A stretch of 56,718 bases of DNA, counting the filler, from Sphacelaria rigidula (taxonomy: Eukaryota): assembly GCA_964200075.2 (NCBI GenBank). It is 7 parts of 7 records of this genome, joined end to end, with 100 filler letters (N's around TTAATTAATTAA, not from the genome) between each part and the next. Parts side by side here need not be neighbours in the genome. Positions count along the whole stretch, not along the records: positions 8,118 to 16,134 come from CAXNAA020012626.1; 6 more parts are not named here. One strand, given 5' to 3'. Made by a program: the position numbers and the translations under genes. Positions 81-52,425 of the stretch are shown piece by piece (position 1 is the first letter of the stretch; the number at the start of each line of letters is the position of its first letter). The notes beneath the pieces are model-generated. The model was not told the DNA's origin. It did not search any database and saw nothing but the letters and a program-made list of their open reading frames with translations.

Positions 81-3000
81 CTTGCGTAGTTCATGCACGA
101 TCTCACGCTCCTCCCCCCCCCGTCCCTCATTCCCACCTACTCCAGCATATCCCATAGCGTCGGCCAAAAATCTGGATCCTGGCCACATCTTGCCGCTCTG
201 TCGGCAGCAAGGGCATCGAGTGGGCAGGATGCATTGTTCGCATCCCCACCAAGCACACCGCCCCAAGCCTACAGCGCAAGAAAGTTACCTTCCTCGGCTG
301 GCAGGGCAACTGCGAGTGGTGGCGGAGGGGGCGGCAGTGCGAGGGCGCGGGAAAGCGGGAGTCGGCGTTCTAAGCTCCGAACGACGTTTGCGCACAGCCC
401 TCCACAAGAAGAGGGGGCTCCTGCTGTGTCGCCGACGGGGCTAGGGGTCGAGGTCCGAGGAGGAGGAGGGCGGGGGGAAGGGCAGACTTTTGGTGGGATG
501 AACAGTGCGGAGGAAGGGTATATGTCGTTTGCGGCTCTGGGATATAGCAAAAGCGTGGGCCCGGAGTAGGTGAGGAGTGTGTGTGGATGTACACGGCCTG
601 AAAGGACAAAGTTGGCGCGTAGTTTTCATGTGCCCAGCCAAAAAAAACTGCGTTTTTACTTTTCCCATTCTGGTGGTAAGGGAAGACTTGTATTCAAGTG
701 ATTCTCGTCTTCGTTTCCGTTTTTGTGTTACTTCGCTCAGGAATAGATGTCAACCCTCAAGCGAGCGGATGACGGTCGTGTATCGTATTGTTTTTTGATT
801 GTCGTACACGACTGCTTGTTCAGCAAAAAGATTCCTGAGCTCTTTTGTGGTCACTGGTTGGAGGGGGGGTGAAATCGAGTATGTGTGGTTAGTGTGTGGG
901 TATGCGTGGTAGGTGGGTGGGTGTTGGCGCGTTCGATTCATGACGATGACTTTCGAACACGCAGGTCGGGTCAATCGCTGGATGTCTGGTTTCGGGTTAC
1001 GCTACAGTCACAACATGCAGACTACAGCTTGTATTCGGTAGTAGGCGTTGGTGTTTTTTTAGAGGGTACGCGGGAAAACAGGGGTAGCGTAGTGCATCCG
1101 TGTGTACTGCAAGTGTGGGCTTTTTGCTCATCTGTTCAATGGTCGGAGAGATGTATGCGTCTCAAGCGATGGTTGATCCACAGCTAAGAGGGACCACTTT
1201 ATTGTTGAGCTGCGATTTTGCCGGAGCATGATGCACGAATATGATTGTCACCTGAAAGAGACCGCACAGACATGAGGAGAATGTACCTCGGAGGGTGTCG
1301 GGGGCAGGGCAAGTAAAGTGTTCAGAGATAGCATATTTCTGCTGCAATTCGTGCCGAAGTTTGAGCACGTCAAGGTAAGGCCACGCCGTAGAAGATATGG
1401 TATGCTCACGCTGTGCTCGTACAACAGATGTGGACCGTGGGGTTCGATTGCTGTACGGCACACTCCACGCCCTGTGATGTCGACCTCCCGGCAAAATGCG
1501 ATCAGGCTTGAAAATTGAAACAGGCTGTCAGTTTGGTGAGGCATTTCAAGAGTATTTTTCACGTGTACGCTGTACTTCCGAGCAGTTTGCCGTCGGGCGC
1601 ACAAATGGTGGGAAGAGTACTGTTGAAACTCAGGTTGAGGAATTTTTCCCCCTCGGTATATGCCGCTGTAGTCGGTTTGTACTTTTCTTGAGCCGGTTGC
1701 AATTTGATATCTACGCTGAGAGAGAGCTGGCTTGAAAGAGGGACATAATTTGAGGGGTCAGAAGGGGGGCGGCGTTGGACCACGAGTTCTTGTAAAAAAG
1801 CCAACCTCGTACTGGGCACGGAAATCAGGGGTGTGTGTGTGTTTGTGTGTGCGCGCGCGCGTGTGTGTTTTCTCATGCTTGCGATCCGACTCTTGATTCA
1901 TCTGCTCGGAAATACAGTAGACCATGCCGTTGGCATGGCCTTTTCATTTTACGGGAATCAACAGTTGCAATTTAGGGATGCAGTGAGTGCTCCAGCTCGT
2001 GCAAGGTTGATACTCCACGTGGCCCGAAAATAAGGGTGGGTGCTAGGTTGGTTGCAAGTGGGCGAACGCCCTGTGTATGTATGCCGCACCCTTTTACAGG
2101 ATACGGGTTGGGAACAGATATGAGAGAGAAGTGAAACAGATCAGGGTTTGAGTGGGTGAGGAGTACTGTAGTACAGATCGAATCAGGGTTGGATGATTGT
2201 TTTGAAAACGTTATAATTCTTCCGCTTGACTTTCATTTGATCTGAGTGCGACGTATGATACGGCACTTAGATGCTCGCATGATCGTTGAATGTGACCGGA
2301 TATCGATTGTTGCTATTATTCCTCTGTGATGTGCAGCGATAGACCTGCTTCTGCACTTTTGTTTTATCTATTTTGCTTGTATGGTGGTAAGAAAATATCT
2401 TGTTGCGAGTGGCTGCCTGTCTTGGAAGTAGAGCATGACCAAGCCATGACAGGGTTACTCCCGATGTTGGTGGCACGGTTGGGGCACGTGCGGGAGGCAC
2501 GTATTTCCGGCGGTGGAGTGAAGGACAACACACAATCTGTCGAATCTGTTCATAGATCGGTGACGGCGCTCGCTTGCGAGTGCGGGACGAAATAATTGCC
2601 GTTTGTGTCTTGTGCCGCATGTGCGCCGCGCACGGGTTTGGTCGCTTAGCGCAGGTTTAAGATAAACATGTTGGATTTTTTACGCTTTTCTTCTTGTATA
2701 CGACTGGTTGTAGATGTCTCCTACATACCAAGGTACAATAATTAGCCGTCGAAACATATCTCGCGATGACAGTAGTCATGACCTTCGGAGTGCAAGCCCG
2801 CGCAACAAACCAGATCTGCACGACCAAAATGCTGGCGTTGGGTGTGATTGTACCGGTCCAATAAGAAACAGTTACAGTGGGCATACGAGTTTATCCGATA
2901 CCACGCACGTGGACGCCGTTGGCACACGATGGTAACTACCCGATATACCGTGAATTTCCAGTTGATCCACCCTCAACAACAACTATGTCGACATGTTTAT

Positions 3001-3539
3001 GTGCTATTACGTCGGCTACCCCACCAGTATACTCCACTCCAGTGGAGTGAAATACAGTCAAAGTCTTCATAATAGACACACAAAAAGACTAACCGTGTCA
3101 CTGGCTCATGATCGCGAGCAGCATGGCGAACGCGTGTACCGCGACGCTGCGCCGCCACACTCGGTCACCAGATATCACTTGCGGTACGTCCAGCCAAGCC
3201 ACTATGATTGGCCTCCAATGCGCCAAATGTGAAAGCTACCGAGCTGAGCTGACCAGCTAACCCTGCGGATATGAAACCTCTGAGTTCACGTCTGTCCCAC
3301 TGCCATGGAGTACGCCTTCAGTGGTTGTACGACGCGAGATATGCACAGCACTCGGACTTGCTTGCCCGTTCGTGCGATCGTCTTCTGAAGTTGTACTCGA
3401 CTCGGACTTGCGCTTCATACCTCTGCCTGAAAGGGTTGAACTTCCTTCCCCATCGACAGTTCCTTCGGCGATGTAAAGTGCTACGTCTGAATAAATCTGC
3501 GGTTTCTCTGTGCGACGGGATAGGCGGGCGCTCTGTTCC

Positions 3540-5245
3540 AACGTGTGGACTATTATCCCGGCCAACACATACTCCTCGAAGCACCTCTCCTGAGAGCACC
3601 TCTCGTGTAGCATTTGAACCACCCCATCCTCGGTATGCTGCTTGCAGGACTCTGCCTTCCCGATGATTTACTCCTCACTACATGACGACTGCTTGGAGCA
3701 GCCGTTGGAGCAACCCTCGCGGGCATTATTCACGAATAAGACCACTCCATGCCCAGGATGCTGTGGGCAGAACTCGGTCTGCCTTCTGCACTTCACGACA
3801 GAAGACGGTCTCTTGGAGCAGCGGTCGTGGGAGAATATGTTGATCACCACATCCTCCATCTCATCCTCGGCATTCTTTGAGCGGAAGTCGGCCTGCATTC
3901 TGCCGTTCACCCCATACAACGGCTGCTTGGAGAAGCCATCGCGGGAGCACCTCTCGCGCACCACATTCACCATTCTGTTCTTGGTCTGCTGTTTGCCGAA
4001 TTCCGCCTTCCTGCTGCCCTCCATTCCATACGACGGATATTTGGAGCAGCCTCCGTGGGAGCACCTGCCTCTCACGTACCGTACCGTTTTTGGCATGTTG
4101 CTTGCAAAGCTCCGCTTTTCTGCTACTCCTACTCCATGCGATAAGTATTGGGAGCAGCCGTCGTGGAAGCACCTCTTGTTCATCACGCCCGCCATGCCAT
4201 TCTTGGCATGTTACTTGCATAATTCCGCCTTCCTGCTGCCATCAATCCCATACCATGAGTACGTAGAGCAGCCGTCGTAGGAGCACCGCCTGTTTTTCAC
4301 GTCCACCATGATGTCCTGGGCATGTTGCTTGCAGAACTCCTGCTTCCTGCCACCATCCATCCCGCACGACAATCTCTTGGGTCAGTCGTCGTAGGAGCAC
4401 TCCTTGTTCTCCGCGTGCTGCTTGCAAACTCTGCCTTCCTGCTACCCTTTATCCCGCACGACGGTCTCTTGCAGAAGCCATCGTGGCGGGAGCGTATCCT
4501 GTTCTAAACCTCGACCACCCAATCCTTGGCATTCTGCTTGCAAAATTCCACTTTTCTGCTGCCCTTCACCTCAAACACCAGGGAGTTGAAGCAGCGGTCG
4601 TCGTAGGATCACTTAGGCCCGTTATTATCGTCGCCGTAGGATAACTTAGGTCCGTCATTATCGACACTTTTTTCAGAGATCTCAGAAATATTCCGACTTT
4701 TCGGACTCTGCGTTCAGACTTCTCCGAAAACGAAGCGGCTTGATTTTTTCTCCGAAAGCTTGATTTTTGGAGAAGCCCAAAAATCTCGGACTGCAACGCA
4801 GCACTTCGGGGAGCTGCGCTGTGAACGCGCCGTGGCGCTCGCAAGCATTCGAGAATCATCAGGTACCTCGCCAATCCCGGCAATTTCGGAGATTTCCAAA
4901 AAAGCAGTGACGATAATCATGGGCCTTACTGTGCAGCACGTTCACCATTCCGGTCTTCGCGTGCTGCCTGCACAATTCCGCATTCCTGCTGCCCTCTATT
5001 CTTTACACCGGGTGCTTGGAGCAGCCGTCGTGGGAGCACATCTTCCCTCTCACTTTCATCACTCCGATCTCCGCGTGCTGCCAACAGGACTCGGTCACCC
5101 GGCTGCCCTCCAACCCGTACGACTGACACTTGGAGCAGCCCTCGTGGAAGCACGACTCGCTCAGCATGTACACCATCCCGTCGTTGGAATGTTATTTGCA
5201 GAACTCCGCCTCCCTGCTACCCTCCAACCCATACGATTGACACTC
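3540..5245 (-). pseudogene. Decayed tandem array of EsV-1-7 cysteine-rich repeats (more than 10 units)
   Basis: Minus-strand motifs 'RCSHGGCSKYPSYGMEGSRKAEF', 'RCFHDGCS', 'CSKRPSSVVKCRRQTEFCPQH' and 'GMVNV' match the EsV-1-7 consensus (C-x-H-x-GC-x-K-x-P-x-YG-x-EG---AEFC-xx-H). Many stops and frameshifts, and interrupted by a MITE. Confidence 0.85.
4616..4925. mobile_element. Tourist-like (PIF/Harbinger) MITE inserted in the EsV-1-7 array
   Basis: TIRs GGCCCGTTATTATCGTC (4616) and GACGATAATCATGGGCC (ends 4925). TTA flanks both sides (4613-4615, 4926-4928). The left end is locally duplicated (second copy at 4649). Confidence 0.8.
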
Positions 5246-6660
5246 ATTCGTCTTGGTGGCATCGGGCGTCGGAGCTAGGCCGATAAACGCAAGTTGTCGG
5301 CGCGATTGTTCTATCCCGCTATTCCAGCCTTGAGAACATGCGCCGACAAATCCTAACGGTAGTTGCGCCTGAAAGAGGTGTCTGCGCGTCACAAGTGTGG
5401 GGCTGTTGATGTCTTCTAAAGGCATCACCTGGCAAAGATTTCGCAAAGAAAAGAGTCAACAGCAGCCGCACGTCAACGATTACACTGTGAGCGGCCGTAC
5501 AGCCATCACTCGAGAACCTGTCCACGATACATTTGAATGAGGGAAAATAGCAAGCGGAATAGGTCAGCTTCCGACGAAGAAATACCGATGAGGGTTCGGT
5601 GGCTTGACGTCACAATTTGACGCCATGCCACGTACCCATGAATCAAACCTCGATGGCGCGTCTTACAGTCGGGGATCTCCACGGAATGAAGCGATTGTGC
5701 TGTACTGTGCTGTAGCAGCACAGTATAGCGCAGCAAGCCGCCACCGAGCTTAGTGCCCCTTCTCCAAGTCTAAATGCCGCCAACTCCACTTTGGGCAACA
5801 CGTCTTGCGAAGCCAAACCAGCTCGTTGACGTAATTCCATCTTTATAGCTTTGCTAACCGAAACGTTTTGCTTCTCTTGCTTAAGCCGGTTCGCCCTATG
5901 TGCTTGACGGGTAAAACGAGAACAAGGCAAAGGAGGCAGGGTGCGACTCAGATCTTCAAGGAACACATAACGTGGAAAGGAATTCTCACCCGCGAGCGCA
6001 GCAGGACCAACGCGCAAACACTATTAGTATTACATCTCGGCTTCTTGGTTCCTATTCTAATGCGTGCAATTTTTCACATTCCGAAGAATCCAAAAGTCAA
6101 GTTCAATGATGACCAAGTAAACCGCTGAACTGCAGTACTTAGACTCCGAAACTAGCGCTCGTCTTGGGCGTAGACACGCAGAATGTTGTTCTGGGGCGGT
6201 TCTACTGATATTATGTTGTGATCTTTTACCCGGTACAGAGAGTAAAACTGTACATGAAAAGAAAAAACATCGATCATTGCACTTGCAGTAGCGTAGTGTA
6301 GTGTTGTAGCGTAATGTAATGTGCTGTGCCGTAAGAGTAGGTTAAGGCCCAAGGACTGCCACAGGAAGCATTAAAACTGGAGGAAGTCTCCGGTTTTCGG
6401 CCATTTTTAAAAAACATGTTCCACGTCTGAAAAAATCCAGAGATCTCTACGATAGAATTCCTTAAATGTAGCCGAGACTGGACGGCAATTTCCGTGCCGT
6501 TGACAGGAAGTCCGGTGAGAAAAAGACGAGACATCCCGTCAAGTATGGCAGAACACAGCCGCGAACTTCCCGCGGGGGCGGGCGGGAATGGCTACAGATA
6601 GAAAGGGGAAAGAGACGCGAACCTTTCCTCATGAACGAAAGAACGACGGCTCAATGATTT

Positions 6661-8117: not shown

Positions 8118-8800
8118 CGGGGGGGGGAAGAGCAAATTCCAACTATCTCGACACGAAAGTCCCCCCCCCCCAAAAAAAAAAACGGTCTTCGAGTTTCAGA
8201 TAGTGCCCTCGAGAACATGTGTGCAATTTTTCGTGTTCTAACTCGAAAAATCGGCGTGAGGAAATGCCGGGGAATAGATTCTGGGGGTTGAATCTGGTGG
8301 CGAGTCTTGATTGCCGTTGGATAGGCGTACAAGGTGAGGCGAAAGAGAGGGTAAAAACGTGTGATGGGGAAAAGGGTGGGTACACTGGCTGACCTATATG
8401 CGACTGACCTATATATAAATATGCGTAGTGTTTCGAGTCGGGTGCACGCTTATTTTACGGCCAGAGGGAAAAGTTGCACCGAAAGGAAGTTTCAAGGCCA
8501 CAAGATTGTTTCGGTTGTTGGTGAAAATGCGGCTGGGAACGTTACAATCTTTCCGGTGGTGATTTTTTTTTCAGATTTTCGGGTGCCATGATAGGACATC
8601 CTCTTCCTCTTCCCCCCTCGACAGGATCAAAGGTAGACATCCCAAACGAGCAATCCACTCTTTTGATACATCGCCACGAGTGGTTGTGTGGGGTCAGGGT
8701 ATGGAGCGCGTCCTCCTCAATGCAACCTTACGACAACCACCACCCAACGAGAACGCATTCGTGTCGTTTTTGCATGAAAAGCCCCTGTCCCCCACTCCAT

Positions 8801-9296
8801 GAAGGGTTGGCGTCAAGTGGCAACGACGCTGTAAACATGCCACTTACTGCTCAAGCTAGAAAACCAGGCAACCGTTTTTTTCGCTTGCGTTCCTTTGCGG
8901 TAGCCATGATGGTGATCAAGTTAGATCATCTTGTGCGGCGTGGGGGAACTTCAACTCCGCGCAAAGATGATGATCGTACTTCGTGTTCAAATGATGAGAC
9001 ACCTACGATGAGGCAGTGTGACCTGCGGCTTTCTCTGGAAGTGGCGGTACCAGAAAATGAGGCAACTCATTGGAGACTGTCATTCGTATGCAAGATAATC
9101 AGTACGCTTCGGGCCTAACAATCTTAGCAGGGTGCAACTCACCCCTCATGCGACTCGCCGAACACGTCACGGCGCTTCGCGCTTGGCGATTGCGAGCGGG
9201 CTCGGTCCGCTGAAAACCCGGCGTGCTCCATCCCGGCTGTGTAGGGACGCGAGGTCAATGGTCATATATGACTTCGGCATGCAAGATCATGAGTAC
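8801..9296 (+). mobile_element. Non-autonomous retroelement or LINE 3' fragment, 'family B', longest copy
   Basis: Homologous copies at 11800-11907(+), 24465-24710(-), 29717-30075(+) and 32011-32368(+). Variable 5' truncation and a common 3' end '...gcaagatcatgagtac' followed by a C-rich tract. Confidence 0.8.
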
Positions 9297-11799
9297 AGCT
9301 CTGCTCTCGCTCCCCCTCCTCGCCCGGCCGCTCGTCCGTCCGTCCTTTCTTCCTTGTTTCGGCGGCATTCGCGCAGACGCACACACGTAACCAAGCACCA
9401 CAGTCAACACGACGCAGCGGAGCTTGTGTATGAATAGTCGACGCGATATATCAGGGGAAAGGGGGCGGCAATGCCGTCATGGGAAGAACAAGCCACCGCC
9501 TGCCACGTCAACTATTGCCGAAAGGACGGCTGTGTGTATACGTGCTGGTGCTACTACTGCTGTTGTGGTTGCTGCTGCGCGACGATATTGTTTGCCCGGG
9601 AAAATGCACTATTATTCAATCGAGGTTGTCCGTGTGTGTCTGATTGCGGAGCGAAGCGAAGAAGGTACGCTGAGCGGTAAAAATGCGAAGCAACGACGAC
9701 CGACCAGCGATCGTCGACGAAGTAAGTGTGCAAGGGACATATGTTAATGGAGTGGAGTGGGGTATACGAGCAGAGGTAAGAGGTGTTCAAACCGCCAACG
9801 CCGTCTCGAAAAAGATGTGCGGAGTGTGTGCAGTGTGTGTGTGTGTGTGTGCACGAGGCTTGCTATTGTGATGATAAGTACCTTTGGATAAAAGTGCGAG
9901 TGCTTGTGAAGTAGCTGCTATTCTTTCGGAAGGGGGGGGGGGGGGGGGGGGGGGGGGGGAAAGGGGGGGGAGGGAGGGGGAGGGGGTAGTTGGGGGTTGG
10001 TTTTGTTNNNNNNNNNNGGCATGAGAGCACAACGGGATGATGTAGGCCGACGGCGGTGGCTGCAGCCACTCAGCAGGCGTCGGAGAGGGGGGCTTCAGGG
10101 AGGAAAGTGCAGGGAACGCAGAGAACGCAGTACTAGAGTGTTAGTTTTGTTTTGTTTTGTTGTTGGTCATTTTCGCCGGGGGTGTGTCTCATACCCGTCC
10201 ACTCTCCACTCCCCACCCCTGCTTGCTGAGGCGTAAACTCGTGATGAGAGGGACCGGACCGCATCACACATAAGTCGTCATGTCGGCATTTCTTGTGCGA
10301 GATGTGTAATTTAGTGACTTCGTGCGGGGGTGTGCGGGACATGTGGTGTCGGGCGTGTCTGCGAAAAACGAACAACACAGCCATAGACGTCTGAGATACG
10401 GTGTTATTTTAAAAACTGGAGAACGCGCTTCAAGTGATGTTCGTTGGGCGGAATTTCCCCCCCTTCGATGGCAAGAGGGTCGTCCGCGGTGCGCATACGC
10501 CATGTTGTATTCGAGGTGACCGAGGTGTTGCGGGAGATGTGGTCAGTTGCTCGCTTTTTCGGTCCCTGTGCTTTCTTGTGTGTTCGCGGGGGCGAGCTAT
10601 TTTGTCGTTTCTTGTCCAATCTGCTTCACATATCCGGTTGGTACCGTTTCCGAATGCGCCGTCTTCTGTGGGTTTATTTTCCAGCGGCAGCTTACGCGTC
10701 ATTGTTTTCGAAACCTTTTGTTTTGGGCGTCTCGCACGTAGTATTGTTTTCAAATTGTTTTTGAACGTTGTTTTTCCTTATCCAGGCGGCAGAACTCCCC
10801 CCCACCCCCCCCACCCCCGCCCTCTCCCTCTTTTCGTTTTTTTAGGTACGTTTATAGGTGTATCGATTGGGAAAAGAAGCCGCTATACGCTCTGATCACA
10901 CAAGTATTTCGTGGGATGCCACAAAGATATTAGAGAAACATAATCATTTTTTGTACTCGAGGTACGGGGGAAGGGGGGGGGGGTGCGAAGGAGTTGGAAG
11001 AATTTGTCGTCGCAAGCACGCGCGGGCGAATTCCCTCTCCCTGATAGCCGTGGATACCTCCTGTTTTTACGGCAACTTTGAAACGCCGAATCGTTTGACG
11101 TATCACGCCTTGGATACTCTTGTAACAGCGGTGATCCGTCGGTGACAAGTGATAATTAATGTGATACTTTGGATATTGGGGAAGGAGGGGGTGTAACCAT
11201 GGGGGAGGGAAAGGGGAGGGGGGGGGGCATGCTTTGCAGCTGTTCAAATTGTACTTATATCCTCTATACATATATTGAATATATAAATCAAATAGGGGGG
11301 GGGGGGGGGGGACACCAAAAAGTTTGGGGAAATCTTTGGGAACGATCAGGGTGGGAGAAAAAAAACGGGGGAAGTGTGCACATGTTNNNNNNNNNNTTTT
11401 TTTTCTTTGTCTATTTTTGTTTTGTATGGATTTTGGAGGTTTGGGTTGGGGTGTGGGGTGTCACGTCAAAGATGTTGGGAAATCTTTGGGAACGATCATG
11501 ATTGGAGATATAACACGATGAAGGCTCGAACTTGTCTTTCGATTAAAAGTACGGCGATTGTTGCCCTTATTGAATGAGGGGTGGGAGTGATGTACGGTCA
11601 CATGTGACGATGAGGGGTCACGTATACATGTAAAAGCATGTATTCTCTCAAGCTGATCTAATTCGTACGGGTACGAGTAGGTGTAGTCTAGGCAGTTTGC
11701 AAACGGGGGCAAATATGGGTGGAGGGAGAGTGCGCAGATCGCAACTGTCCTTGGAAATGGTGGAAGGTCAACCCTCCGTCCCCCTCCGTCCCTGTACGA

Positions 11800-17364: not shown

Positions 17365-20300
17365 TTACTCTTCTGTAGAGAGATCTTCCTCCCCTACAGC
17401 GGCTTGTGTATCCTCTTCCAAGTCTGCTTCAGCGGCTTGTGTATCCTTTTCCGAGTCTGAGGTTTGGCGAGCACCCATTCGCGCTGATCCATCTCCAGCG
17501 CGGTCACCAGCAACTGCAGCCACTGCGGCACCGAATCTCGGACACTTGTCGTTGTCAGAAATTGATCGAACATCGGCGCTGGCTCGGGCTACCGCGGCCG
17601 CCGCCCCAAACGTCGGCGGACCCCCTGTTCCATCTCTTTCCTCAGCATAACCGCCGCCGCGGGTGGCTACCTCTCCTGCCACACCATCGACCGACGGACC
17701 CTTTCTCCGGTGCGCGGCTTGTGCGCCGCCGCCGCCGCTACCTACCCCTGCCGCGCCTGCCGCGAATAAGGTAGGTGAAACCACCCTCCGATGTCCGGAC
17801 ACAACGCCGCTGGCGCTACGAGGGGCTGCCGCCGCTGTCACACCCAACGTGGGTGAAATCCATTTCCGAGGCGTGGACTCAACAGCAACACCACCGCCAC
17901 CAGAGACTGGCGTACCTGCCGCAGCAAAGATCGATGCGTCACTGTCCCGGGGCGCTGCTTCAAGATCATCATCGGGCGTTGCCATACCTTTCCCCTCCTC
18001 CGGCCGCGTTGGCTCATGAGCATGATCTTCACTCGCTTGTAACCCCAATCCTGCCCGTGGTCGTGGCCCTCCACTGTGGTCACGACAGACAGCGGGGAAT
18101 GGCGTTTGCACCGCCCGAGGCCGCTTCCCCCTCCCCGCTGGCACAATTGTATCGGCCGCCGCCGGCCGTAGTATCGCCGGGACATCAGCTGAGAGGTCGG
18201 GGTGTGACCCTTGTTTGCAGTCAACAGCAAGGTTGACCAGGTCTCTACCGACAAACGTTGAAAATGCCTCGGCTCGATGTGGCGGCATCTCTTCCACGAT
18301 GATGCGCTTCAGAAGCATAGCGAAATTGTTGACTACATCGAAGAGGAGCATATTTGTGGCGTTGGTGTCGCTGGTGATCCCTTCGTCGGAGGAGAAGTAC
18401 TCGTGTTGAAAGAAGCACAGACGATCCTCGTGCTTCCCGCGCACCAATTTCGCACACACGCCGTGCAACAATAGCAGGGCGGACTCCGGCATAATTGGGA
18501 GAGAAAATTGCCCCGGAAGCTTCGTCTCACCACAAAGAATGTGTCGCGGGTGCACGGTGTCGATTGACCTGCAGCGAAAAAAAAAGGAATGGCGGTGAAA
18601 GAGTTTCGGTTGAACGTAGGGGGCTATGCGGACCGACGGTCATGAAACTGCGCTTCATGGCGTGCTGTTGCATGGCCTTCATACGTCTTCTTTGCTTTGG
18701 GGTCGACATATCGGAGCCTGTTGGATGGATAGCAGCGGGAGGCAGGGTCGGTTTCGTGATCACCGCCAAGCTGAAATGAAGTTGTGTGTGCCCGATACCG
18801 GGCAGTACTGTCGTACTGTGCAGTGTTTGTTGTACTGTACAGTACCGTACCGCGCAGGGGGGGGGGGCAACATGGGCACTCTAGCCCCAAGTTTCTGCCG
18901 CAGATCCCTGTATTTCGGCGCCCTCTTGCGGGGAGAGCCTCATGGCGTAAGGGGTAAACGGCGGGTGCAGTGAACAGAGTGATGGCGGCGCGCGAAAGCC
19001 CGCGTGCGGCCCATGGAAATGGGCAGCGAGGGGGGGTGGTAAACGGCGTGATACATGAGCGGGTAACCCGCATGCATTATCCTGCGTTCATGCGATGCCA
19101 CAGGCATGCACAGTCGAATATGTCCCAGGTGATGCTGCGTGAGGGCTGTCGGCGCGATACTCGCGTGTGATTACAGCGGCATGGAGGAGTAAATGGTGTT
19201 GGTGACGGCATGACAGTTATGCGGGCCACGAGGTACATAGCGGAAAGAGGTGGGCATGATTACCGCTGTGGTTTCGACCACGACAAGGCACTGCCGTTTG
19301 CATAGGGGTTGGCCGTGAGAGTTCAAGCGTTTTGTAAGGTAATCGCGCGCCGTGAGGGCACAAGCTTCTGGCTTATGGCGCTTCCAGACGGGTGCAATTT
19401 GGTGTCGTTTTATCAGGGGGGTGGTTTATACCGTGACAGTGTCGACGTGTGGAGCGACCCCTTCACACATAGGCGGGTAGCGGTGCGCACGAGTGGGAGA
19501 AAGCAAGAGGAGTGGAGTGGAGGCAAGCGTGACAGTGCTGCATTACACCCTCGCGCTGTTATTGGGGTAAGCGTATGCTGTTTTCAATAGTTTTGTGCGC
19601 GACTGTGAACATCGCTGCGTGCTTGGCCTCACCTGCTCTTCGCTGCGAAGGTGTGCCTAAGGTGCGGTGCTGCACAGACAGTGCAAGTAGCCCCCTCCGC
19701 CTTGTGCTGGGCTTTCCTGCACGTGGGGAGAGCACATGATACCAACCAGTCTAGGTTGGTGTTGATTGTAGTGGTTGGATTGCGATTTGTGCGTACGTTC
19801 TTTGCCTGTGCAGCCTGTACTGCTTCATCTATTTTTAGAGCCAGTGCGAGCACCCTTCCAGCATTTCAGCCACTCTGCCCAGCTCAAGAGTCATCACGGG
19901 CGACCGGTTTTCAGCGGTCAAAGGCACTTCTTCGCCCGTGCCAACGGGTGTTTTCGTTTCCCTATGATATGAGGTCGTCGCCTTTGCGCTGTTTTGGGTT
20001 GGGGGGGGTTGCGTGATCGAGTTGTACACGAAGATACGCACGCTCAACAGACCGTGCGGTGCATGGGCCTCACCTTGTAGGGGCTCAGCTTCGAGTAGGT
20101 CTTCTGCAGACCTTGTTGTCAACGTCCCCAACCTCCACGGAAGCAGTCGTAACACCAATCACGCCGTTCTTTTTAGCAAATTCGGTCCACCTACTGTGGT
20201 GAACGTTCCACTGCCGGTGAAAGCAGCTGTCAAGACGCTGTGGTGGACCCAGGACGGCCTGTGAAAGACGTGGGTGTCCGGATTCACCCGCGTTGAACTT

Positions 20301-24351: not shown

Positions 24352-24430
24352 AGACGGAGCACCGTTCCTACTCCTAATAGAGACACCTCCAACATTCTGG
24401 CGCTCATTACTTTCTTTCCGTAACTCATTA
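24352..24430 (-). mobile_element. LINE 'family A' 3'-region fragment
   Basis: Matches 31300-31370 (agacggagcaccgttcctactcctaata.aga.acctccaac.ttc.ggcgctcat). Confidence 0.8.
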
Positions 24431-24464
24431 CGGAGAGGGGCGGGGGGGGAGGGGGGAGGTCAGT

Positions 24465-24710
24465 TACTCATGAATTTTGCATGCCGTGATCATGTGACCG
24501 TTGACCTCGCATCCCTGCAAGGCCGTCGAGCACACCGGGTTTTCGCCGGACCAGACTCGCAATCAATCACCAAGCGCGAAGCGCCGTGGTGTGCTCGGCG
24601 AGTCGCGTGAAGGGTGAGCTGCATCCTGCTAAGATTGTCCGGCCCGAAGCTTACTGATTATCTTGCATTTAGATGACAGTCTCTCCAAGGAGTTGCTGCA
24701 GTTTCTGGTG
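24465..24710 (-). mobile_element. Family B copy in minus orientation, C-rich tail at about 24432-24460
   Basis: Reverse complement aligns with 9040-9296. Confidence 0.8.
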
Positions 24711-26076
24711 GAGAGAAGGATGGAGAGGGTTTCAGCTTGGCTGCTCAGCAACCCGCATACTTTTATATGTTAACGGCGCTTATTCATACGTGTGAAATTG
24801 ACACGCGCCCCTCTCCTCCCCCGAACTGAAGAACGCCGACTCGGTGTTTTCGACTCAGCAGCGACGCGAGCGTGCGAATTTTACAAACTAGACGTTTGTT
24901 ATGTCCGATGTGCTAAGTCATCAATCGCACGCACGGTACTCCTCGCCATCACAAGAGTGGCAGCCAACCGGCGAGCCCGTTCAAAACGGGCCCGGTGTGT
25001 ACGTGTGTGTGTGCTGTGTGTTTTGATGCCATCACCTTCCCCCCCCCTGCCCTCCCCACGTTTTGAAATGACAGGTTTTTCGCGAAACTTGGCGATGTAC
25101 AGTATACCGCTCTACCGTATTTTATGACGCCCTTAATAAACCCTCACCGCCGTACCCCGCAAGCATCGCACGTGTGTGTTTGTGTGTGTTTGTGTGTGTA
25201 TGCCAAGTCAGGTGTCCAGGGCTATTGCTCATCGTAGGTATTTTCAACGAGAAGCGCTCCACACGCCTCGACGCTTGCTTCAACAAAGAAATATCGTGAC
25301 CACACCCCTTCCTCCCCGCGCGTTTCGCTTCCAATCCCTTTCTCCGTACCCGGCGATCGATTCGTGTTGCTCTACAGGTTTGGAGGCGATTGAGGTTTGT
25401 GCTGCCCGGGGGGCAAGCGTTTTGGCAAAATCACGAGTCTCAGGTGCTGCGTGGCAGTGCCGCAGTACTGCCTGATCGCCATGATGCGGGAACGGCGGAA
25501 AGTTCATTTTGGCTCTACCGGGCTGGGGGCAGGCGCCTGTCGATAGACGTTAAGGTGTGTGAGTGGTTGAGTGCTTGAGAGCATGGGCTTTGGGATTTAT
25601 ACCAAGAGCATCTACGTTTTTCGTAGCAAATCTTCACACGAATGTTCTAATTTGTAGAGTTCGAGAAATGAAACCGGAGGTAGAGATGGAACTATGTTCC
25701 ACTTCAAATATATGTACATGACCCACGTCCTCTATCCCCTTCTCTTTCGTGATATGGAGGAGCATGCGCATTTAGGCTGTGCAGCTTACCCAGTACAAAA
25801 ACCTTGCAATTTCGCGCTTGCCTAGACACGATGGTGCTCACCAGACCGGCCTGAAAAATGTGCAGTTGGCTCCTATACACGCCCATCTGTGTTCCCCCTT
25901 TGTTCCAGTCTATGCGTTTTTTTTTTTTTTTTTCTTTTTTTTTTTGCCAAATCGTCACCCAGACGGGCAGACATGAATGGCAAATCATTTATTGCTGCAC
26001 ACAACCGCAACTCTTTTCATGCAGCAAGCAGGCTTCAGGTTTCCGGCTATTTAGCCTACAACATGTCTCTACTTTC

Positions 26077-26141
26077 ATGTATGTATGTATGTATGTATGT
26101 ATGTATGTATGTATGTATGTATGTATGTATGTATGTATGTA
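26077..26141 (+). repeat. (TATG)n tetranucleotide microsatellite
   Basis: Direct reading. Confidence 0.95.
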
Positions 26142-26399
26142 TATAACCCTACGAGTACCTACACATGTCAAGATTGTACCTCTGATGCCCCCGTCGCCCA
26201 CTGGCCCTCCTGCCTGCCTGCTCCCCCTCCCCCACCCGGAAACGAGATACCAAAATCCCAGTAGTGTTCACCACTTGGCCGATTAGAACCTTCCTGGATT
26301 GTTATCACTTGATTTGAGTGTAAACACCGATATTCGGATCTTTATCGGGGCTGACAGCCCCAACTGCCCCTCGCGTGCGCAGAACGCGTGTTCGTCGAA

Positions 26400-26580
26400 A
26401 TCAGCACCTGCGACGCCGTTTTTGAGGTCTGCCAACGCCACGCTTTGCCTACGGAACGCTTCACACCTCCCTTGCCCGAGGATTCTCGGTATGCCTTGAG
26501 TTGGGGTTCGGGTTCGGGTTAGCGTTATTAAAAAAAAAATCCGAGAAAATTTCGTCATCGACCAAGTGGTAACCACACCT
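26400..26580 (+). repeat. Short dispersed repeat with a GGGTT-rich core; relatives at ~30400-30605 and ~34960-35050
   Basis: 'cccttgc.cgagg.ttctcggtatgccttg.gttgggg' is shared with 30488-30530. Confidence 0.6.
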
Positions 26581-26637
26581 CCAAAATCCACACAAATGTA
26601 TTCTGAACAAAATAAAAACGAACAGATCCCCGTACAG

Positions 26638-27543
26638 GATGCCCGGGAAGTGTCACGAGCTTCCTCGCCCATCGCCGACGTGTACGTCAGCTCGGACGAA
26701 GACGGTCCCGAGTCAGCCCAAAACGAGCAAGGCGGAGGCAGACTGAGGCGACGCTCCGATCCCTGGGGCCGCCGGCGCTCCTTCAAGTCCAGCCCGGAGA
26801 CGCTACGGAGCTCTGCGAAAGAATCCTTCCCTTCGACAGCCACTGCATCCTCGTGCCATGGTGATGAAAATCGTGGCGTGGGTGATAATGGTGAAAATGA
26901 TGATGAGATATTGACCTCTTCTGGTCCGGTCGACCACGCGAGAGCTCGTGATGCTCGTGGTGGTAGGTCGCCTGCACGAGATGAGAGGCAGGCGGGCTCG
27001 ACGGCAGCAAGGGAGCGGACGTCACAAGCAAGGAAGGAGTCCAATACGAATGCTGGCACAAGGAGGCGCGCGATCCCGGGGGATTTGCTCCTCCCCCACG
27101 AGAGGGAAAACGGCGCGACTTGGGCCGCGCAAGGTGAGGCAGGGAGCTGCCGGCGACGGGTCCACGGGGCTGCTCGGGGCAAAGACGTCGTAGCCGGAGC
27201 TACTGAAGAAAAAGTTGCAGCCCCATCCACCCTACCCGTAGCAGGCACGGGCGGAGATGCGGGCTCGCGAGGATTGGGGGGTGGAGAGCAGGGACACCGT
27301 AGGAGTCAATCGGTGTCGGGCACAAGCACCGAAACGGGATCTGCGGTGAGAACGAGAGAGGGGATGGGGCCAGGAGCAGAAACGTTGACGACGGCGGAGC
27401 CTACGAGGGCCGCGCTGCTTGGACGTGTGCGGCAGCTGGAGGATGAAATCGCGTCTCTGCGTCAAGCGATGGCGGAGGGTGGAAGTGCCGAAGGTGGTGA
27501 TGGTGGTGATGATGGCGGTGATGGCGGTGCTGTGGTAGTGTAG
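26638..27543 (+). CDS. Probable terminal exon (or single-exon ORF from ATG 26596) of a low-complexity G/S/R/E-rich protein with a short C-terminal coiled coil
   Basis: ~300 open GC-rich codons; in-frame acceptor gtacag|GAT; coiled-coil-like 'RAALLGRVRQLEDEIASLRQAM'. No family recognised. Confidence 0.55.
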   Translation, partial: DAREVSRASSPIADVYVSSDEDGPESAQNEQGGGRLRRRSDPWGRRRSFKSSPETLRSSAKESFPSTATASSCHGDENRGVGDNGENDDEILTSSGPVDHARARDARGGRSPARDERQAGSTAARERTSQARKESNTNAGTRRRAIPGDLLLPHERENGATWAAQGEAGSCRRRVHGAARGKDVVAGATEEKVAAPSTLPVAGTGGDAGSRGLGGGEQGHRRSQSVSGTSTETGSAVRTREGMGPGAETLTTAEPTRAALLGRVRQLEDEIASLRQAMAEGGSAEGGDGGDDGGDGGAVVV

Positions 27544-29232
27544 GGGCCGCGAGGATTTTTCAGAAATTGGGCAGTTTGTTCTTCGCGGTTTTGCTTCTTC
27601 CGTTTTTTTTCCGTGCTGTTTTCCCTCGGTTAATAGTAGGGTCCGTCGGAAACCCAGGGCGGAGAAAATAGTTGATTTCCATTGTGGACCATTCATCGTA
27701 TTCAGATCTATTTGGGGTTTATGGTCTCTCGCGCTCGCCCAGCGTGCTCCGTACGCGTTTTTCATTACATTGGCGCGGGCCGCGCCGACGTGAGCTGTGC
27801 CAAAGCACACTTTGCCCGGAACGTTCGCCATATGTAGTCCACTCGTCCAGGGTTTTTGGTATGCCTTCGGTTGCGGTTTGTGTTACGGAGTGTGACCTCC
27901 AAGTTGGACAAAAACGAAGCGTGTGTTCAGCTGTAAACATGGGGGAGACGGTCGCGGTCGGGAAGAACGTCCCTTATGTTCGTTCTTTGTTTTCTTCACT
28001 TTTTTGGGAGAGGGGGAAGGGGGGACGGTGAAAATATTCACGTTAAAACTACCGTTCTTGTACCGTGCGTATGTTTGAGGGCACGCGTGTTTCTTGTCAG
28101 CGAGAGGCGACGGGCGTTCGATGTGTGCTCAAGATCAGCTTCTCCTCGGGGCGTGATGAGGCAGCTGCCGCATGCCTCATGTCTATGTCTTATGACCATG
28201 GATAGAAGAGTACCCGTGGATGCTGAGCGACGTGGACCATATAGGGACTTTTTTTTCTCCTCATTTTGTTTCTGTACGCGTTCTTCTAATGGATGATACA
28301 GCGAGAGGGAGTCAGCGGTAAGTGGGGATATGGTGGTAACATGGTGAGGCTTGGGCAAGCCAAAAGTATGAGCAAGTTTCGTAGCGGGGGATTGTTGAAT
28401 GTTGGTTCATTACTTGGGCCCTGTTGGAGAAAATTCGGTGTGGTGCGGTAATGTGCGGGGGGTATTGTGCGGGGCGTTTTTTGTTTAGCCTCTTTGGTTT
28501 ACAGAGTTACAATACATACCTCGGTTGGTTTTTTGTGTCGCCACGTGTTCTCATGTATTTCGTGAATCTGTGGTTTTGACGAAAATGCGTAAGATTTTGC
28601 GTGCTCCTCCTGAAGCACTTGGATTTTGTTTTTTTTTTGTTTTTTTTCAAGCAGTATTTAGCCCAGTGTATGCACTAAAATAAGTTTTCCCATCTTGTGA
28701 GTAGAAATGTGGTCGCTTCACGATGGGAAATTTTGGTATTCTGGCCTGGTTGGTGATCATATAGTGGTTACTTTGCGACCATGTGGGGCTGTGTGGTGCA
28801 CGTGTGGGTTTGTGTACTTCGTGTGCGGATTTTACGTTGTATATTGCACGTTTGGATTTACGCTTGTCCGAGCGTGGGGAGAAATGATCGGATCTTTGCC
28901 AGTCAGGAGCATGTATCCCACACGTACCTGGAATTCCGGATGCGGATAGCTATTTTAGTTTCTCCTTCGAAAAAATTGAGGTTGCTCGCTTCACGACATG
29001 GACGAATCACCAACATGTTTGTAAGAGTCGTACCAATCTTACGTTTGCACGCGAGAGATGGAGCATGTGGGCCCCGTGTTTCAAGTAGATTGTGTTTTTT
29101 TTTTCGGTCATGATTTAGTTAACAAAAAATCGTTGGTTTTTGGGTGTGTGTGTATACACACCGCAATTAATTTAATCCGCAAACAAGAAAAACATATGCG
29201 TTTTAACGTTGGGCTACTTCTCTCTCTCTCTC

Positions 29233-29269
<37 letters not shown>

Positions 29270-29716
29270 TAGTGGCGTCATGCCGCCGCGCCCCGCTCGT
29301 CTAAATGAAGAGTAATAAATAAATAAAACATCTGGTACAACTGTAATCTGTCAAGGCACGATTAAGGGTTAGAATTCCCGCATATGCTTATGGGGCTTCT
29401 ACGATTAGTTTCTGGTTTCCATCCTTGAAAACGTAAGGATGCGAGCAGCAAATAAAAAACAAAATGATGAGAGTCGACGGGGTGCGAAAATCCGATCCGA
29501 TTCGCGATTCCAAAGTGTAAGGCGTGTGCTGGGCGAGATATGGGTCAGTCCTTGAAAACTACGCAGTTGTCCTAAGGAAGCGGAGGGGTTAGACATGTGG
29601 CGAATGTATTACCATGTATATGGTACATACACACGATCGAAGTATCAAAGCGCTATATCGTACTTGCTTATGCTCGGGAATCTTCAATTGCTGGGTTGTC
29701 GACCCTTCGCCCATGA

Positions 29717-30090
29717 CGCAGTGTATATGTAACTCGTGGCTGTCTCTGAAAATGTCGACATCATAAAATGAAGCAACTTATTGTCGGCTGTCATCCACAC
29801 GCAAGACAAGCAGTACGCTTCGGGCCGAACGATCTTAACAAGATGCAGCTCGCCCTTCATTCGCCGAACACATCATGGTACTTCGCGCTTGGTGATTGCG
29901 AGCGTGGTCCGGCGAAACCCCGGCGTGCTCCGTCCCGGCTTTATAGGGATATAAGGTCAATGGTTTCATGACTACGGCTTGCAAGATCATGAGGACCCCC
30001 CCCCCCCCCCACCCCCTCCCCCCACCTTTTCAGGTCAATGGTCTTATGACTACGGCATGCAAGACAATGAGTACCCCCACCCCTTCACCC
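29717..30090 (+). mobile_element. Family B copy with a tandemly duplicated 3' end and C-rich tails
   Basis: 3' end at ~29945-29995 plus C run; second 3' end at 30032-30075 plus C run. Confidence 0.8.
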
Positions 30091-31059
30091 CTTGGCTGGA
30101 GACAAGAAATAAAAGACATATTGATGGCAGTTATCACCGCGAAGCAGCCGAAGATTCTCTTCCGACCGAGGACACATACCGCAACGAACGATATACTTGG
30201 GACAAACGTGCTCAAGATTTTTATTTGATGTTTTGGCTTACTCGTCTCTGCTGCCCTGGCATGTGCAACTGGACTTCACGCGAACTGGTCGACGAAATCT
30301 GTGGTGAGGCAACTACTTGTTTGCAGTGCAGGCTACAAAATCCAGATCTTCTAGGGCTGACAGTCCCAGGTGTCCGCACATCGAAACGTGCCAAGACTCA
30401 TTTTCGCTCAGATACGCGCCTACAGAGCCGGCGGGGATTTAAGCTTCATGTCAACCGTACACTTTCCCTTGGACCTCATATCCATGCCCCTTGCTCGAGG
30501 GTTCTCGGTATGCCTTGGGTTGGGGTCGAGTTGAGACTTGAAAAAAAAAGAAGGTATGGTTTAACCACGGAAACTGGCGACCAGTTTCCAGTCAAGGTGG
30601 CACCTACTTACCCTTGTGTATGCCATAAGCGTGCGTACTTGCTATGGTGATTGTTTTTGGTCCCTCGGGAGCAGATCCTCTTGGTAGATGGGCTGGTTGT
30701 CACACGTGCAGTTATTGATACCCGAGGGATCCCGTCGTGGTCATTGTCCACAAGGTGGACGTTACTGTCAGGGCCTGGCAGATTTGGCATGCCTGAGGTC
30801 TTGCTCGAGAGGCCAAGTTCAAGAACAGGTTGGTTGAGACGGTGTTCGTCGCCTGAGATGCCTTTTTTTAGCAACAGAAAGTACGCGATTAACGGGACGA
30901 AGGACCCGTAAACCACAACCGTTTGCCGCGAACTAGGCCCTCATCGATGAGAGCGCCGTAGGCTGTGGGGAACTCTCTTCAGTGGAGGGTTAGGCTGTGG
31001 AATATGCCAATATATATCTGGCTGTTTGTGGAATATGGTAATATGTCATCCTGCGATAG

Positions 31060-31640
31060 GGGAGAGAAGGGGGTGGGGGGCGTACTCATTTGTTGCCTTA
31101 GTCGCTTGACCATTGACCACGCATCCCTTTCGAGACAAGGGGGCGGGGGCGTAATTATTTGTTGCTTGCCTTAGTATTTGACCACTGACCACGCACCCCT
31201 TTCGAAATTGAGCATAGGCGGCGAGGGGGGGGGAACGGGGGGGCGAGCTCATTTGTTGCTTGCCTTAGTCGTTTGACCATTGACCACGCATCCCTTTCGA
31301 GACGGAGCACCGTTCCTACTCCTAATACAGATACCTCCAACGTTCCGGCGCTCATAACGTTTCTTCCATACATTGAACAAAAACATTTTACTCATCTTAT
31401 CCCCGTCCTGTTTCGCCGCCTATGACCACCATCTATTTCCTCGTATAGCCATTGTTTTCTCCCTACCGCCTGATGCATCAAAAGATTTCATGTCACCTTC
31501 GTTCACGTCCCGCATTTTCCCCTCTAGCACGTCCCATTCCTCCTTGTATAGGTCACATTCTGCCACTACATGACTTCTGCTTTCTATTGCTTTGCAACAG
31601 AGGCAGTTCTGTGCATCTACTTCCTCCTCCACACGACCAC
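31060..31640 (-). mobile_element. 5'-truncated LINE ('family A'): ORF2 C-terminal zinc-knuckle region and 3' end, terminal ~55 nt triplicated
   Basis: Minus-strand 'EEEVDAQNCLCCKAIESRSHVVAECDLYKEEW' fits the C-x-C-x7-H-x4-C knuckle of non-LTR RT C-termini. 3' units at 31086-31137, 31155-31206 and 31248-31302. Confidence 0.8.
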
Positions 31641-32010
31641 TGGTATATATATATATATATCACTTTCTTCTCTCTGGCAGGTCCAGGATCCCCACCCGAG
31701 ATCGCAATTCCAATAGCGGCGAGGGGGGGCAGGGGGGTTGGTGCCACGAAAAAACAGACTCGTGTGTGTGTCGGGCGACCTAGCACACTCGCGATGCGCT
31801 TGTATGCGAATGAAAACGGTGTCAAGCAGTGTGAATGAGTGTTTCTTATCGGTAATAAGCGCATTCGAAAAACCGTCGCCGCTTTCAACGGCGATTTGAA
31901 GTCGAATTTCGTGGACAATACTGCCCAACACGCCCTCCCCCCCGCCCCTTCGCCTGCTTCGGCGAGAACACGGCGTGCTTCGTCCCGGCTTTGTGGGGGC
32001 GGCCCCCCGA

Positions 32011-32368
32011 TGGGGTTGGCGTCGGTTGGCGATGACGCTATACAATACGCCACTCCCTGCGGAAGCTAGGCAACCAGGTTACCCTTCTTTTGGGTGCGCT
32101 TGCGCGTTTTTTGCGGTAACCATCATGGTAATCGAGCTAGGTCATGCTGTGCGGCGTGGGCGAGCCTCAACTCCGCACAATGGGGATGATCGTACCACGT
32201 GGTGTTCAAATGGTGAGGCACGCATAAGGTATTGTGTAAGCCGTGGCTGTCTCTGGAAGTGGCAACACCAGAAAATAAAGCAACTCATTGTAGGCTGTCA
32301 TCCAAATGCAAGATAATCAGTGGGCTTCGGGTCGACCAATCTTAGCAAGGTGCAGCTCATCCTTCATG
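32011..32368 (+). mobile_element. Family B copy truncated by scaffold end
   Basis: Colinear with 8801-9150. Confidence 0.8.
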
Positions 32369-42540: not shown

Positions 42541-45500
42541 ATGGACGGCGAGGTGCTGGTGGGCGATCAGTATGCTTCCGATTGGGACGAATCAGACATC
42601 GGTACAGAAATCAGCGGGGAGAACAGTGGTGGTAGTTTCGACGACACTTCTCGTGTTACAGAGGTTCACCCTAGTTCACCAACGAGATGTGACAGTGAGG
42701 CTATTGATGCCACAGATGCCTGCACCGAGGAGCAGGTTGACGAGACCATCAAGCTAGCAAGTAGGATGGCGCACAAGGATAAAACCCCGCTTCACCACGA
42801 TAATCCAGATATTAATGATGGCTCGGCCGATCAGACGTTAGGCGCCGTCACTGACATGAGCGTGGATGTTGGAGGACCCGATGAGGAACATGGGAATGTC
42901 GACGGTACGCCGGATGGCGAAGAATGCGCCCTGCGTAGAACATCAAGCATGGGCTCATTCATTGCGCCTCTTTCGGAGCATAACAAGGAAGTCGATACCT
43001 TTGGACCACAGGTTAAAAATAAAGACAGCGCTCATAACAGCATTTGTGCTCATTCACCATCAGTGGAGGACGATTTTGCAGGGCGAGGTTCGCGAGATGG
43101 TGAAGGTCGGCAAGACGGCACCCAAGAGGTTCAGGAAGTGTTGCGGGTTAAAGGTCGTATCGAGACTTCGTCGGAGAATGGGGACCACGGGCTGAGATTG
43201 GACCAAGGAAGAAGCAGGGACAGTGGCACTCCTACAATGCTGCACAAAGCTAAAAATCCTGCGATGCTAAACTCGGATGCCGTGGTGCCTCACGACGCGA
43301 ATACATCATCACCAATAAAAATATCGTCGCAATCCTCCCAACAACCAACGCTACAAAAAACGACCCGAGCAGCAGAAGATGGCAGCAGCGTCGGTGCACT
43401 AGCACAGACAGTCTGTCGGGTGGAGATGGTCAATCAGGATGTGACTTCTTTGCGTTTGGAGCAATCAGTGGAGAACGCCCTCCTGCTGCAAGGCGCAGCC
43501 GACAAGACGAGCTGCAGAATCCAGGATGGGGTTTGTTCAGCAACGTCATTGTGGTCTTTATCACTGCAGCGGTGTCGATTGCCTTCCCTGTTGCCCGTGG
43601 CGGGTCTGCTGCACAATCTGAGCGTGTTGTGCTCGCTGGAGGTGAACGGCTGCACTGGTCTGATACTCACTGGATTAGAACGAGTGCTGGAGGACGCGCC
43701 TTGCCTTCGGGCCCTGACGCTTCGTAGATGCGGTATCTTCCAGTTTCAGCCGCCCCTTGCCAGCGGGTCGATTGAGGTCAGTCAGTCAATCGCTTGCGTC
43801 AGGTACCAGGTGGTGGGCATGGATGAAGTGGGAAAAACTGGAGAGGAAGACAAGGCCGCGAACGTAGCACCAAAGCCTCGTTAGATGTTGTGAAAATTAT
43901 TACAGTATGATTACTCGGTCTTTTTTTTTTCGTCGTGCGGAACATTCAAACCATGGCAGACTTTTGTTGGTGTGAGACTGATTCACTATTTTCACCTTTT
44001 CCTCGACGCTTTAGTAGACCGGCTGCTTGACTTTCTTCACCCATAAAGCTACGTGACCTATAATTGATGTAATTTTGCAGTGAGCATATTGTAGCAAGTG
44101 CCGGATAAACGCTAAAGTACCGTGGTGATAGCTCCATTTTCTGATTTGCCTGCCAGGTACGTGATATTTAGTCCAAATAACTGGTCTATTCATTCTCTCG
44201 CTCAAATCCTGGCCAGTAATATTATTTCACCTGACACGATCGTCTTCCGCTGGTTTTCGTTCGCCACACCGTTAGTCCCCCTCCTTCTTGGCATGATTCT
44301 GTAGCCTCAAACGATCAATCTGTCACTCCCCCGGTCGTGCCCAACATATTATTGTCGCGACTTGGATCAGCACTCTCGCACTACTTCCAATTTTCGTCAA
44401 ATATCGTTCGCTGGTCGCACCCTCGCGTCTTTAACGACCGAAATTGGACACTTCTGAGAACTAAACCGTATCTGGTGAGACTCGAACGCTCAACTCCGCC
44501 CCAATTGGTTTTGAGCTCCACCACTTAGACTACCGGGGCGTAGCGGTCAATGGTAGAGCGGGCAAAAGGTTTCGAAATCACCCTCGGCAACGAAGGTACG
44601 GCAGTATCGGCGTTGATCGACCATCGCTCGATTGAAAACACGGCGCCATCCTCTCGTAGACGCTTAGTGAATGATACAAGAGGAAATGGCAAACAAAACA
44701 TTTGTACGGCCCCCTGTCGTTGGACGGCACAGGTACTAGACGTGAGTCACAACGATTTAGCCAGTGCTACCGGATTGGAGACTTTGGTTCGACTGAAGAC
44801 GTTGAACCTAGAGGGAAACTGCCTTCATAGCTTGGCCGATCTTAGATCCCTCGTGCCACCAGGGACAAGCGGACTCCGGCAGTTGGATTTGACAGGAAAT
44901 CCGGTGCAGAAGGTGCCCAGGTAAGGCTCTGATACTGAGTCACGGAAATACTCCAGATAGGTTTTACCAGGTCTTGCTAGACTGTTATTTCTTCGGTGAT
45001 GCTGTGTGCACTGGCATGAGTTCATCGGAAATCCGTAGGACGGGGTGCGTGTTACTGTCTACTTCTACTACTGCCGTCGGCTGACGTCTGACGAAATTCA
45101 CGGCATGAGATGAAAATGGGTCCCTGAGTCGGACGTGTGCTCAAGGGGCTTTGTGCTGGGGTCGTAGAATGGTGGCTAGCTGTGTTCGGGGAGCAGGAGA
45201 TGGGTGCAGTCATTGCGGAGATGAGCGATGATCCTGATAGTCGTCTTCAGCAAGATTTATTGTGACGCGGTTGATCTTCTCGTTGAAAAAGTACAAACAT
45301 GAGCCGCCGGACCAACTGGTATGGTACATGTGAAGTCCGTTTCGCGCCGGGTTGAGGGTTCGAATTCCAACATGAACATTGTTTCCTCTCAGGAGTACCT
45401 GATTTTCGTCGCTGAACACGTCAGGACACGAGTACCATTTTTTTACTCAAGTTCACACGGTGCCGGAGTAGTGATCCTGTTCACGATACTGAAAATGTCA

Positions 45501-52214: not shown

Positions 52215-52425
52215 CATTGATTCTTGCATGCTTGCGAGCGCCGCGGCGTGCGCCAAGGGCAGCTCTGCGGAGTATTGTGCTGGGGTCCGAAATATTCGGC
52301 GTTCGCCACACGTGAAGGCTCGGCGAAAAAATTTAGTCGCTTCATTTTGGAAGAACGTTGAAAAAAAGTTGCGAAAACGCCTAAAATCTTGGCGATCTCC
52401 GAAAAAACTGTCGATAATAACGGCC
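52215..52425 (-). mobile_element. Partial copy of the Tourist-like MITE at 4616-4925
   Basis: Reverse complement gives 'ggccgttattatcgacagttttttcggagatc' and 'gagctgc...cgccgcggcgctcgcaagcat.c.agaatca', both matching the scaffold-1 MITE. Confidence 0.7.

Follow-up and report, generated by a model that had tools for sequence, protein, structure and literature searches.

The stretch of DNA analysed here, called the window below, comprises 56,718 nt of Sphacelaria rigidula and is a chain of ~8 kb contigs with N spacers from an assembly of 244 Mb in 27,214 contigs (GCA_964200075.2). It contains copies of two retroelement families, the LINE family A and the shorter, non-coding family B, many of them truncated or stacked on one another (Table 1). 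The family A element that the sequence-only reading had placed at 31060-31640 is present, although its coordinates had to be redrawn, as it resolves into the three stacked A units of Table 1. Likewise, what that reading took for the tail of the 470-nt A copy is the downstream copy of a target duplication.

The window also holds coding features outside these elements. At 25376-29102 (+), contigs of two runs join position 25552 to 26624; the skipped 1071 nt, shifted by 2, read GT..AG, and the joined frame is open for 364 aa. This region is a likely spliced host gene. A degenerate tandem array of Cys/His-rich coding units occupies ~3000-5300 (-), with a related piece at 52218-52423, and appears to resemble EsV-1-7 repeats. 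Open frames of 424 aa and 447 aa lie at 17365-18639 (-) and 42541-43884 (+), respectively.

Table 1. Copies of families A and B in the window and the features of their junctions
Feature	Position	Strand	Basis
Non-coding B copy of 500 nt that lacks the optional 5' repeat	8804..9296	+	85.5% to B majority sequence, positions 63-562
5' motif common to B and full-length A	8804..8843	+	36/41 identical, 0/5000 shuffles
3' module common with A (closing helix and two hairpins, predicted)	9223..9296	+	alignment, fold
Interrupted C-rich tract after B	9297..9345	+	C fraction 0.55 in first 20 nt
C-rich tract upstream of B 5' junction	8782..8798	+	sequence; no scorable duplication
5'-truncated B, followed by A + C7	11804..11907	+	profile search
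Family A 3' fragment, cut by contig edge, behind C tract of a B copy	24352..24431	-	
5'-truncated B with C-rich tract	24464..24709	-	profile search
5'-truncated B, followed by C15 run	29710..29996	+	profile search, sequence
43-nt B 3' fragment stacked behind preceding C tract	30032..30074	+	profile search
5'-truncated A LINE, 470 nt, C-terminal end of EN-RT ORF (broken)	31245..31714	-	
Upstream target-duplication copy of the 470-nt A insert (C7 and ~10 unique bases)	31713..31729	-	14-nt match
Downstream copy of the same duplication	31214..31231	-	14-nt match, flanks
Stacked 64-nt A 3' fragment	31151..31214	-	profile search
Stacked 57-nt A 3' fragment	31082..31138	-	profile search
B 5' part with 48-nt repeat, C-rich tract before it, cut by contig end	31952..32368	+	

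Element ends and their flanks

Termini were detected in the window and in a genome sample by profile search with A and B end profiles. All eight window termini named by the sequence-only reading were recovered (8/8): those of B at 9296, 11907, 29996 and 30074 (+) and 24464 (-), and those of A at 31245, 31151 and 31082 (-). Its description of these termini as followed by C-rich DNA and never by poly(A) proved accurate for all eight. The first 20 nt past the ends have a mean C fraction of 0.68 and contain AAAAA in 0/8 cases, and CCCC occurs within 15 nt of the end at 7/8. Terminus 9296 is the least pure of them, with an interrupted tract whose first 15 nt are free of CCCC.

The genome sample, 199.4 kb in total, was made up of 20 stretches picked by contig number and was drawn from longer contigs only, so that densities derived from it are rough. 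Among its 27 matches, 24 had an intact end and flank; these show a C fraction of 0.63, CCCC in 21/24 and AAAAA in 0/24, against a background of 4.0% for CCCC and of 2.7% for 20-mers in which C reaches half or more. The tracts are short and interrupted, and C frequency drops to background by ~25 nt after the end. Because C decays in this way and the flanks past the tract vary between copies, the element stops there, and neither further conserved sequence nor poly(A) follows the C tract. The same absence of AAAAA within 15 nt of the end was seen in all of the copies for which both junctions were analysed (0/90). Furthermore, contigs of four public runs that extend past the A end (455, 366, 59 and 58) give a G-run consensus on the + strand with an agreement of 0.52-0.57, where the runs may include the source sample.

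Structure of family A

Recovery of a full-length A element and classification of its enzymes, which had been proposed as a check, were achieved by upstream walking through four genome searches. The reconstructed element measures ~6 kb. Behind a constant 5' end come a pyrimidine tract and an array of 62-nt monomers (~10 in the copy measured), then ~1 kb in which no long frame occurs, and finally a single ORF encoding an AP-endonuclease, a reverse transcriptase (RT) and, at the C-terminus, a Cys/His motif. In the majority sequence, the 5' region contains no additional frame longer than 107 aa. Only 5 nt separate the stop codon from the C tract, leaving a 3' UTR of ~5 nt. The monomer array, variable in number, is found at L130:4550-5140 and in other full-length copies, and is reminiscent of mouse L1 promoter monomers.

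Genomic A copies are broken and ~89% like the majority sequence. Pfam matches are limited to Exo_endo_phos and RVT_1, and the RT domain was detected in a genomic copy (PF00078, E 5e-21). The intact relative P0001, 72% identical, has both endonuclease and RT, and genomic copies align over its residues 1-1360, consistent with a single EN-RT ORF; the 470-nt window copy is 60% identical to residues 1204-1360 (E 8e-49), with its stop likewise 5 nt before the C tract. Both the majority sequence and open relatives retain intact endonuclease motifs. One such relative from a metagenome, L193, shares ~80% DNA identity over 4.8 kb, an open frame of 1361 codons and the same C-terminus. All metagenome relatives that include a 3' end (3/3) finish in the same motif and C8-10, one of them being only 51% identical in protein.

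The closest named proteins come from Ectocarpus, as fits a brown-algal host. Two Ectocarpus protein lineages match the A RT at 65% and 58% identity, and a tree of 33 rows places the A RT in a 12-row clade with six Ectocarpus-labelled proteins at a support of 100/99. The Ectocarpus proteins of this clade are unnamed, so the label RTEX is one that we infer.

Family B and the sequences common to both families

Family B is 500-562 nt long and non-coding, the upper length including a 5' repeat. Its middle matches nothing in A, so that derivation of B from A by simple internal deletion was rejected. A SINE in the strict sense would have a head derived from tRNA, 5S or 7SL RNA with a Pol III promoter; the B head matches the A 5' end. 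An origin from a ribozyme or small RNA found no support, as Rfam returned three weak unrelated matches in 10 loci and ARAGORN 0 genes in 8. In about 13 of the best 30 copies, the 5' end is formed by a 48-nt duplicate of the copy's own hairpin segment from near the 3' end (e.g. 31952-31998 in the window), and the start points of this duplicate are clustered. A Penelope-like or split-repeat reading of it was rejected because the partner is an AP-endonuclease LINE.

The claim of a ~70-nt 3' end common to both families was borne out by alignment. The A and B 3' ends are identical in 56/72 aligned columns, a score reached by 0/5000 dinucleotide shuffles, with the same outcome for the majority sequences and for two window copies. 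The profiles of the two families also share a 5' motif (36/41 identical, 0/5000 shuffles). The earlier view of a LINE/partner pair with a common 3' end is supported, B being the non-autonomous member.

The minimum-energy fold of the A 3' module is predicted to form a closing helix and two hairpins with 21 pairs. All 21 predicted pairs are possible in B, and 9/10 substitutions fall on unpaired positions (P 2.7e-4); folds of single module copies are no more stable than those of shuffles (z -1.15 to +0.14). As the A stop codon is located 5 nt before the C tract, the common 3' module is coding in A. The 5' motif (8804-8843 and 32013-32053 in the window) can be drawn by eye as an H-type pseudoknot, and in such a drawing two of the five differences between A and B would preserve pairs via wobble. 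The folds of two copies of the 5' motif were unremarkable (z -0.74 and +0.72) with a tool that ignores pseudoknots, and therefore the pseudoknot stays a guess.

Insertion sites and target duplications

The sequence-only reading had left a choice between an oligo(C) tail and targeting of C/G runs. Upstream of the 5' junction, C makes up half or more of the adjoining 20 nt in 24/30 full-length A copies (background 2.7%). For target duplications, 113 copies with both junctions were collected, of which 23 were dropped as having family A as their upstream DNA, leaving 90. The dropped copies include three real junctions stacked beside A (L030, L059 and the A copy of the window). A duplication was called clear when it reached at least 10 nt and included at least 5 bases other than C, a definition by which pure-C duplications are unscorable. 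The suggested tabulation of 3' flanks and duplications thus yielded, besides the C-rich ends of the 24 sample termini, clear duplications in 14/90 copies, whereas 200 permutations gave 0.8 on average and never more than 4. Most of them begin with the C tract and finish in unique bases, and the 470-nt A copy of the window carries one of this type. By this strict test a clear duplication was absent from 76/90 copies, which are ~11% diverged. No empty allele for 24352-32368 was found among the 15 joints listed from the contigs of four runs (1742 more were unlisted). Directly behind another A/B 3' end, we found 19/90 copies.

The C tract could instead be a true tail, a long oligo(C) carried on the RNA by post-transcriptional addition or RT slippage, with insertion sites needing little or no C. 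C-rich DNA is indeed found downstream of 70/90 copies versus upstream of 45/90, an imbalance that implies either that C is added at the 3' side or that 5' flanks have been lost. In L049, L007 and L009, moreover, 12-25 C-rich bases missing from the upstream copy separate the element end from the duplication, and the Ectocarpus table gives "(C)n 3'" for RTEX-1 (PMC12477816). However, a tail explains neither the C-rich DNA upstream of full-length 5' ends nor the fact that in most of the 14 duplications the upstream copy contains at least as many Cs as the downstream copy. The tracts are short, interrupted and back to background by ~25 nt, and L039 has a duplication and no C tract at all. We therefore regard a true tail as unlikely. 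The C tract fits better as largely an insertion target and less as a tail, in favour of the targeting half of the earlier proposal, and the most economical account has the elements inserting at C runs with duplication, together with a variable number of RNA-borne Cs.

Long C/G runs

The pair had also been suggested to explain the many long G/C runs of these scaffolds. Of the 69 sample runs with a length of 8 or more, 19 have an A/B end no more than 25 nt away on the expected strand, 10 of them at 5' junctions and 9 at 3' ends, with 0 on the wrong strand and 0.9% expected. In the window, 3/22 runs of 8 or more and 1/13 of 10 or more are linked to A/B. The link is thus real but accounts for a minority of the runs, and half of it consists of runs used as targets. 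The pair covers ~3.6% of the sampled DNA (7.2/199.4 kb); since it also adjoins roughly a quarter of the long C/G runs, it shapes brown-algal genomes.

Several long G/C runs are located beside contig ends or N (4/19 unexplained window runs), as would be expected if the tracts were artefacts, arising in sequencing or from assembling short reads into many fragments. This is extremely improbable, given that strand polarity is strict, that unique bases are duplicated, and that the same ends recur in three unrelated metagenome contigs and in the library of a near-gapless Ectocarpus assembly. For the element ends, it is already refuted.

Discussion

Common 5' and 3' ends, 5' truncations, C-rich junctions, duplications that start from the C tract and stacking were all observed directly. 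We consider it very probable that family A is a brown-algal RTE-X-type LINE and family B its partner, and that both were inserted at C/G runs by target-primed reverse transcription. This process is established LINE biology, as is the recognition of the 3' tail by stringent LINEs, which their partner SINEs borrow. The A protein would bind the structured last ~70 nt of either RNA, and B would be mobilised in trans via its 3' module. The endonuclease would nick the G-rich strand at a C/G run, where reverse transcription would be primed, and a few terminal Cs of the RNA could pair with the G run, probably aiding priming by the A/T logic of L1 transposed to C/G. A second nick 10-25 nt further on would then lead to duplication of the C tract together with a few unique bases. 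Owing to the duplication of the C tract, each insert would end in a fresh target, giving rise to head-to-tail stacks.

It is quite possible, if somewhat short of probable, that the AP-type endonuclease cuts G runs specifically, that the RNA ends in a short oligo(C) and that insertions rebuild their own target. The oligo(C) would in this case come just after a folded module overlapping the stop codon of the ORF itself. Alternatively, there might be no sequence-specific nick, and breaks at G runs, for example in quadruplex-prone DNA, could anneal RNAs that end in C. The targets are degenerate and variable in length and most copies have no clear duplication, as such use of breaks would predict. 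The majority sequence and open relatives, however, preserve intact endonuclease motifs, and clean 10-25 nt duplications starting at the element end are the product expected from staggered nicks, as established for L1. We accordingly find break use distinctly improbable, and nicking by the endonuclease remains the mechanism that we favour.

The pair resembles human L1 with Alu in that the 3' homopolymer matches the nicked strand and starts the duplication, and stringent LINE/SINE pairs in that a common structured 3' end mobilises the partner. Family A differs from L1 in using C/G for A/T, in its one ORF, and in having the 3' module within the coding end, its 3' UTR being ~5 nt long. With one ORF and no AAAAA after the element, it also falls outside the L1 clade, which is marked by ORF1 and ORF2 and by poly(A).

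The sequence-only reading supposed that C-tailed LINEs were not well described; the same arrangement is, in fact, annotated in the Ectocarpus TE library (PMC12477816). In the entries of Dinatale et al., RTEX-1_Ec32 is given as "single EN-RT ORF; (C)n 3'" and RTEX-2_Ec32 as "(C)n termini/TSD", both with C-rich duplications and lengths of 5.5-5.9 kb, while (CAA)n or (CA)n ends are given for the other Ectocarpus LINEs (PMC12477816). The 607-bp, non-autonomous RTEX-N1_Ec32, the most abundant family, has a 60-bp 3' end 83% like the LINEs, weak 5' LINE homology, possible tandem copies and a C-rich duplication (PMC12477816). In the parts of that article covered here, the C-rich ends of these families appear solely in the supplementary table (PMC12477816).

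As far as these entries go, family A is like RTEX-1/-2_Ec32 in its single EN-RT ORF, (C)n 3' end, C-rich duplications and similar size. It differs in its length of ~6 kb, in the 62-nt monomer array, on which the table is silent, in its older copies and in belonging to another genome. From the RTE and CRE elements of Ectocarpus, as tabulated, it is set apart by C-rich ends and EN-RT order versus (CAA)n or (CA)n ends and, in CRE, RT-EN order. Family B is like RTEX-N1_Ec32 in its size of ~600 nt, its non-coding and non-autonomous nature, its 3' homology to the LINE, its tandem copies and its C-rich duplications; unlike the entry for RTEX-N1_Ec32, it has strong, local 5' homology and often the 48-nt 5' repeat. 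Matching anatomy and protein grouping suggest that A and B are of the RTEX-1/-2_Ec32 and RTEX-N1_Ec32 kind, and any assignment of a given Ectocarpus protein to RTEX-1 or RTEX-2 is presumptive.

Targeting of (C)n repeats has also been described for Chlamys Penelope-like elements, which are unrelated to family A, by Craig et al. (PMC8557442). As portrayed there, Chlamys elements have a GIY-YIG endonuclease and a PLE-type RT, whereas family A has an AP-type endonuclease, a LINE RT and no GIY-YIG domain. Among the papers listed in searches of the open literature, there was no mechanistic study of C-ended LINEs.

The A/B pair is real and well supported and its kind is already catalogued in Ectocarpus, and the remaining interest is the biochemistry of C/G targeting. 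The present analysis adds evidence that the C tract is largely a target, that B and the LINE have a sharply bounded 5' motif in common and that the predicted pairs of the 3' module are maintained. Biochemical confirmation would make the pair a source of a G-run-cutting LINE endonuclease and a clean means of testing how tail-target pairing acts in priming, for which open relatives exist. Should specific cutting of G runs hold, it would represent a naturally occurring nickase of G runs and the C/G counterpart of L1, so far just table entries.

The common 3' module encodes the peptide GCVVNG in family A. P0018 and related proteins, which belong to a more distant lineage with ~50% RT identity, retain this C-terminal peptide, hinting that the RNA motif may be older than the brown-algal clade.
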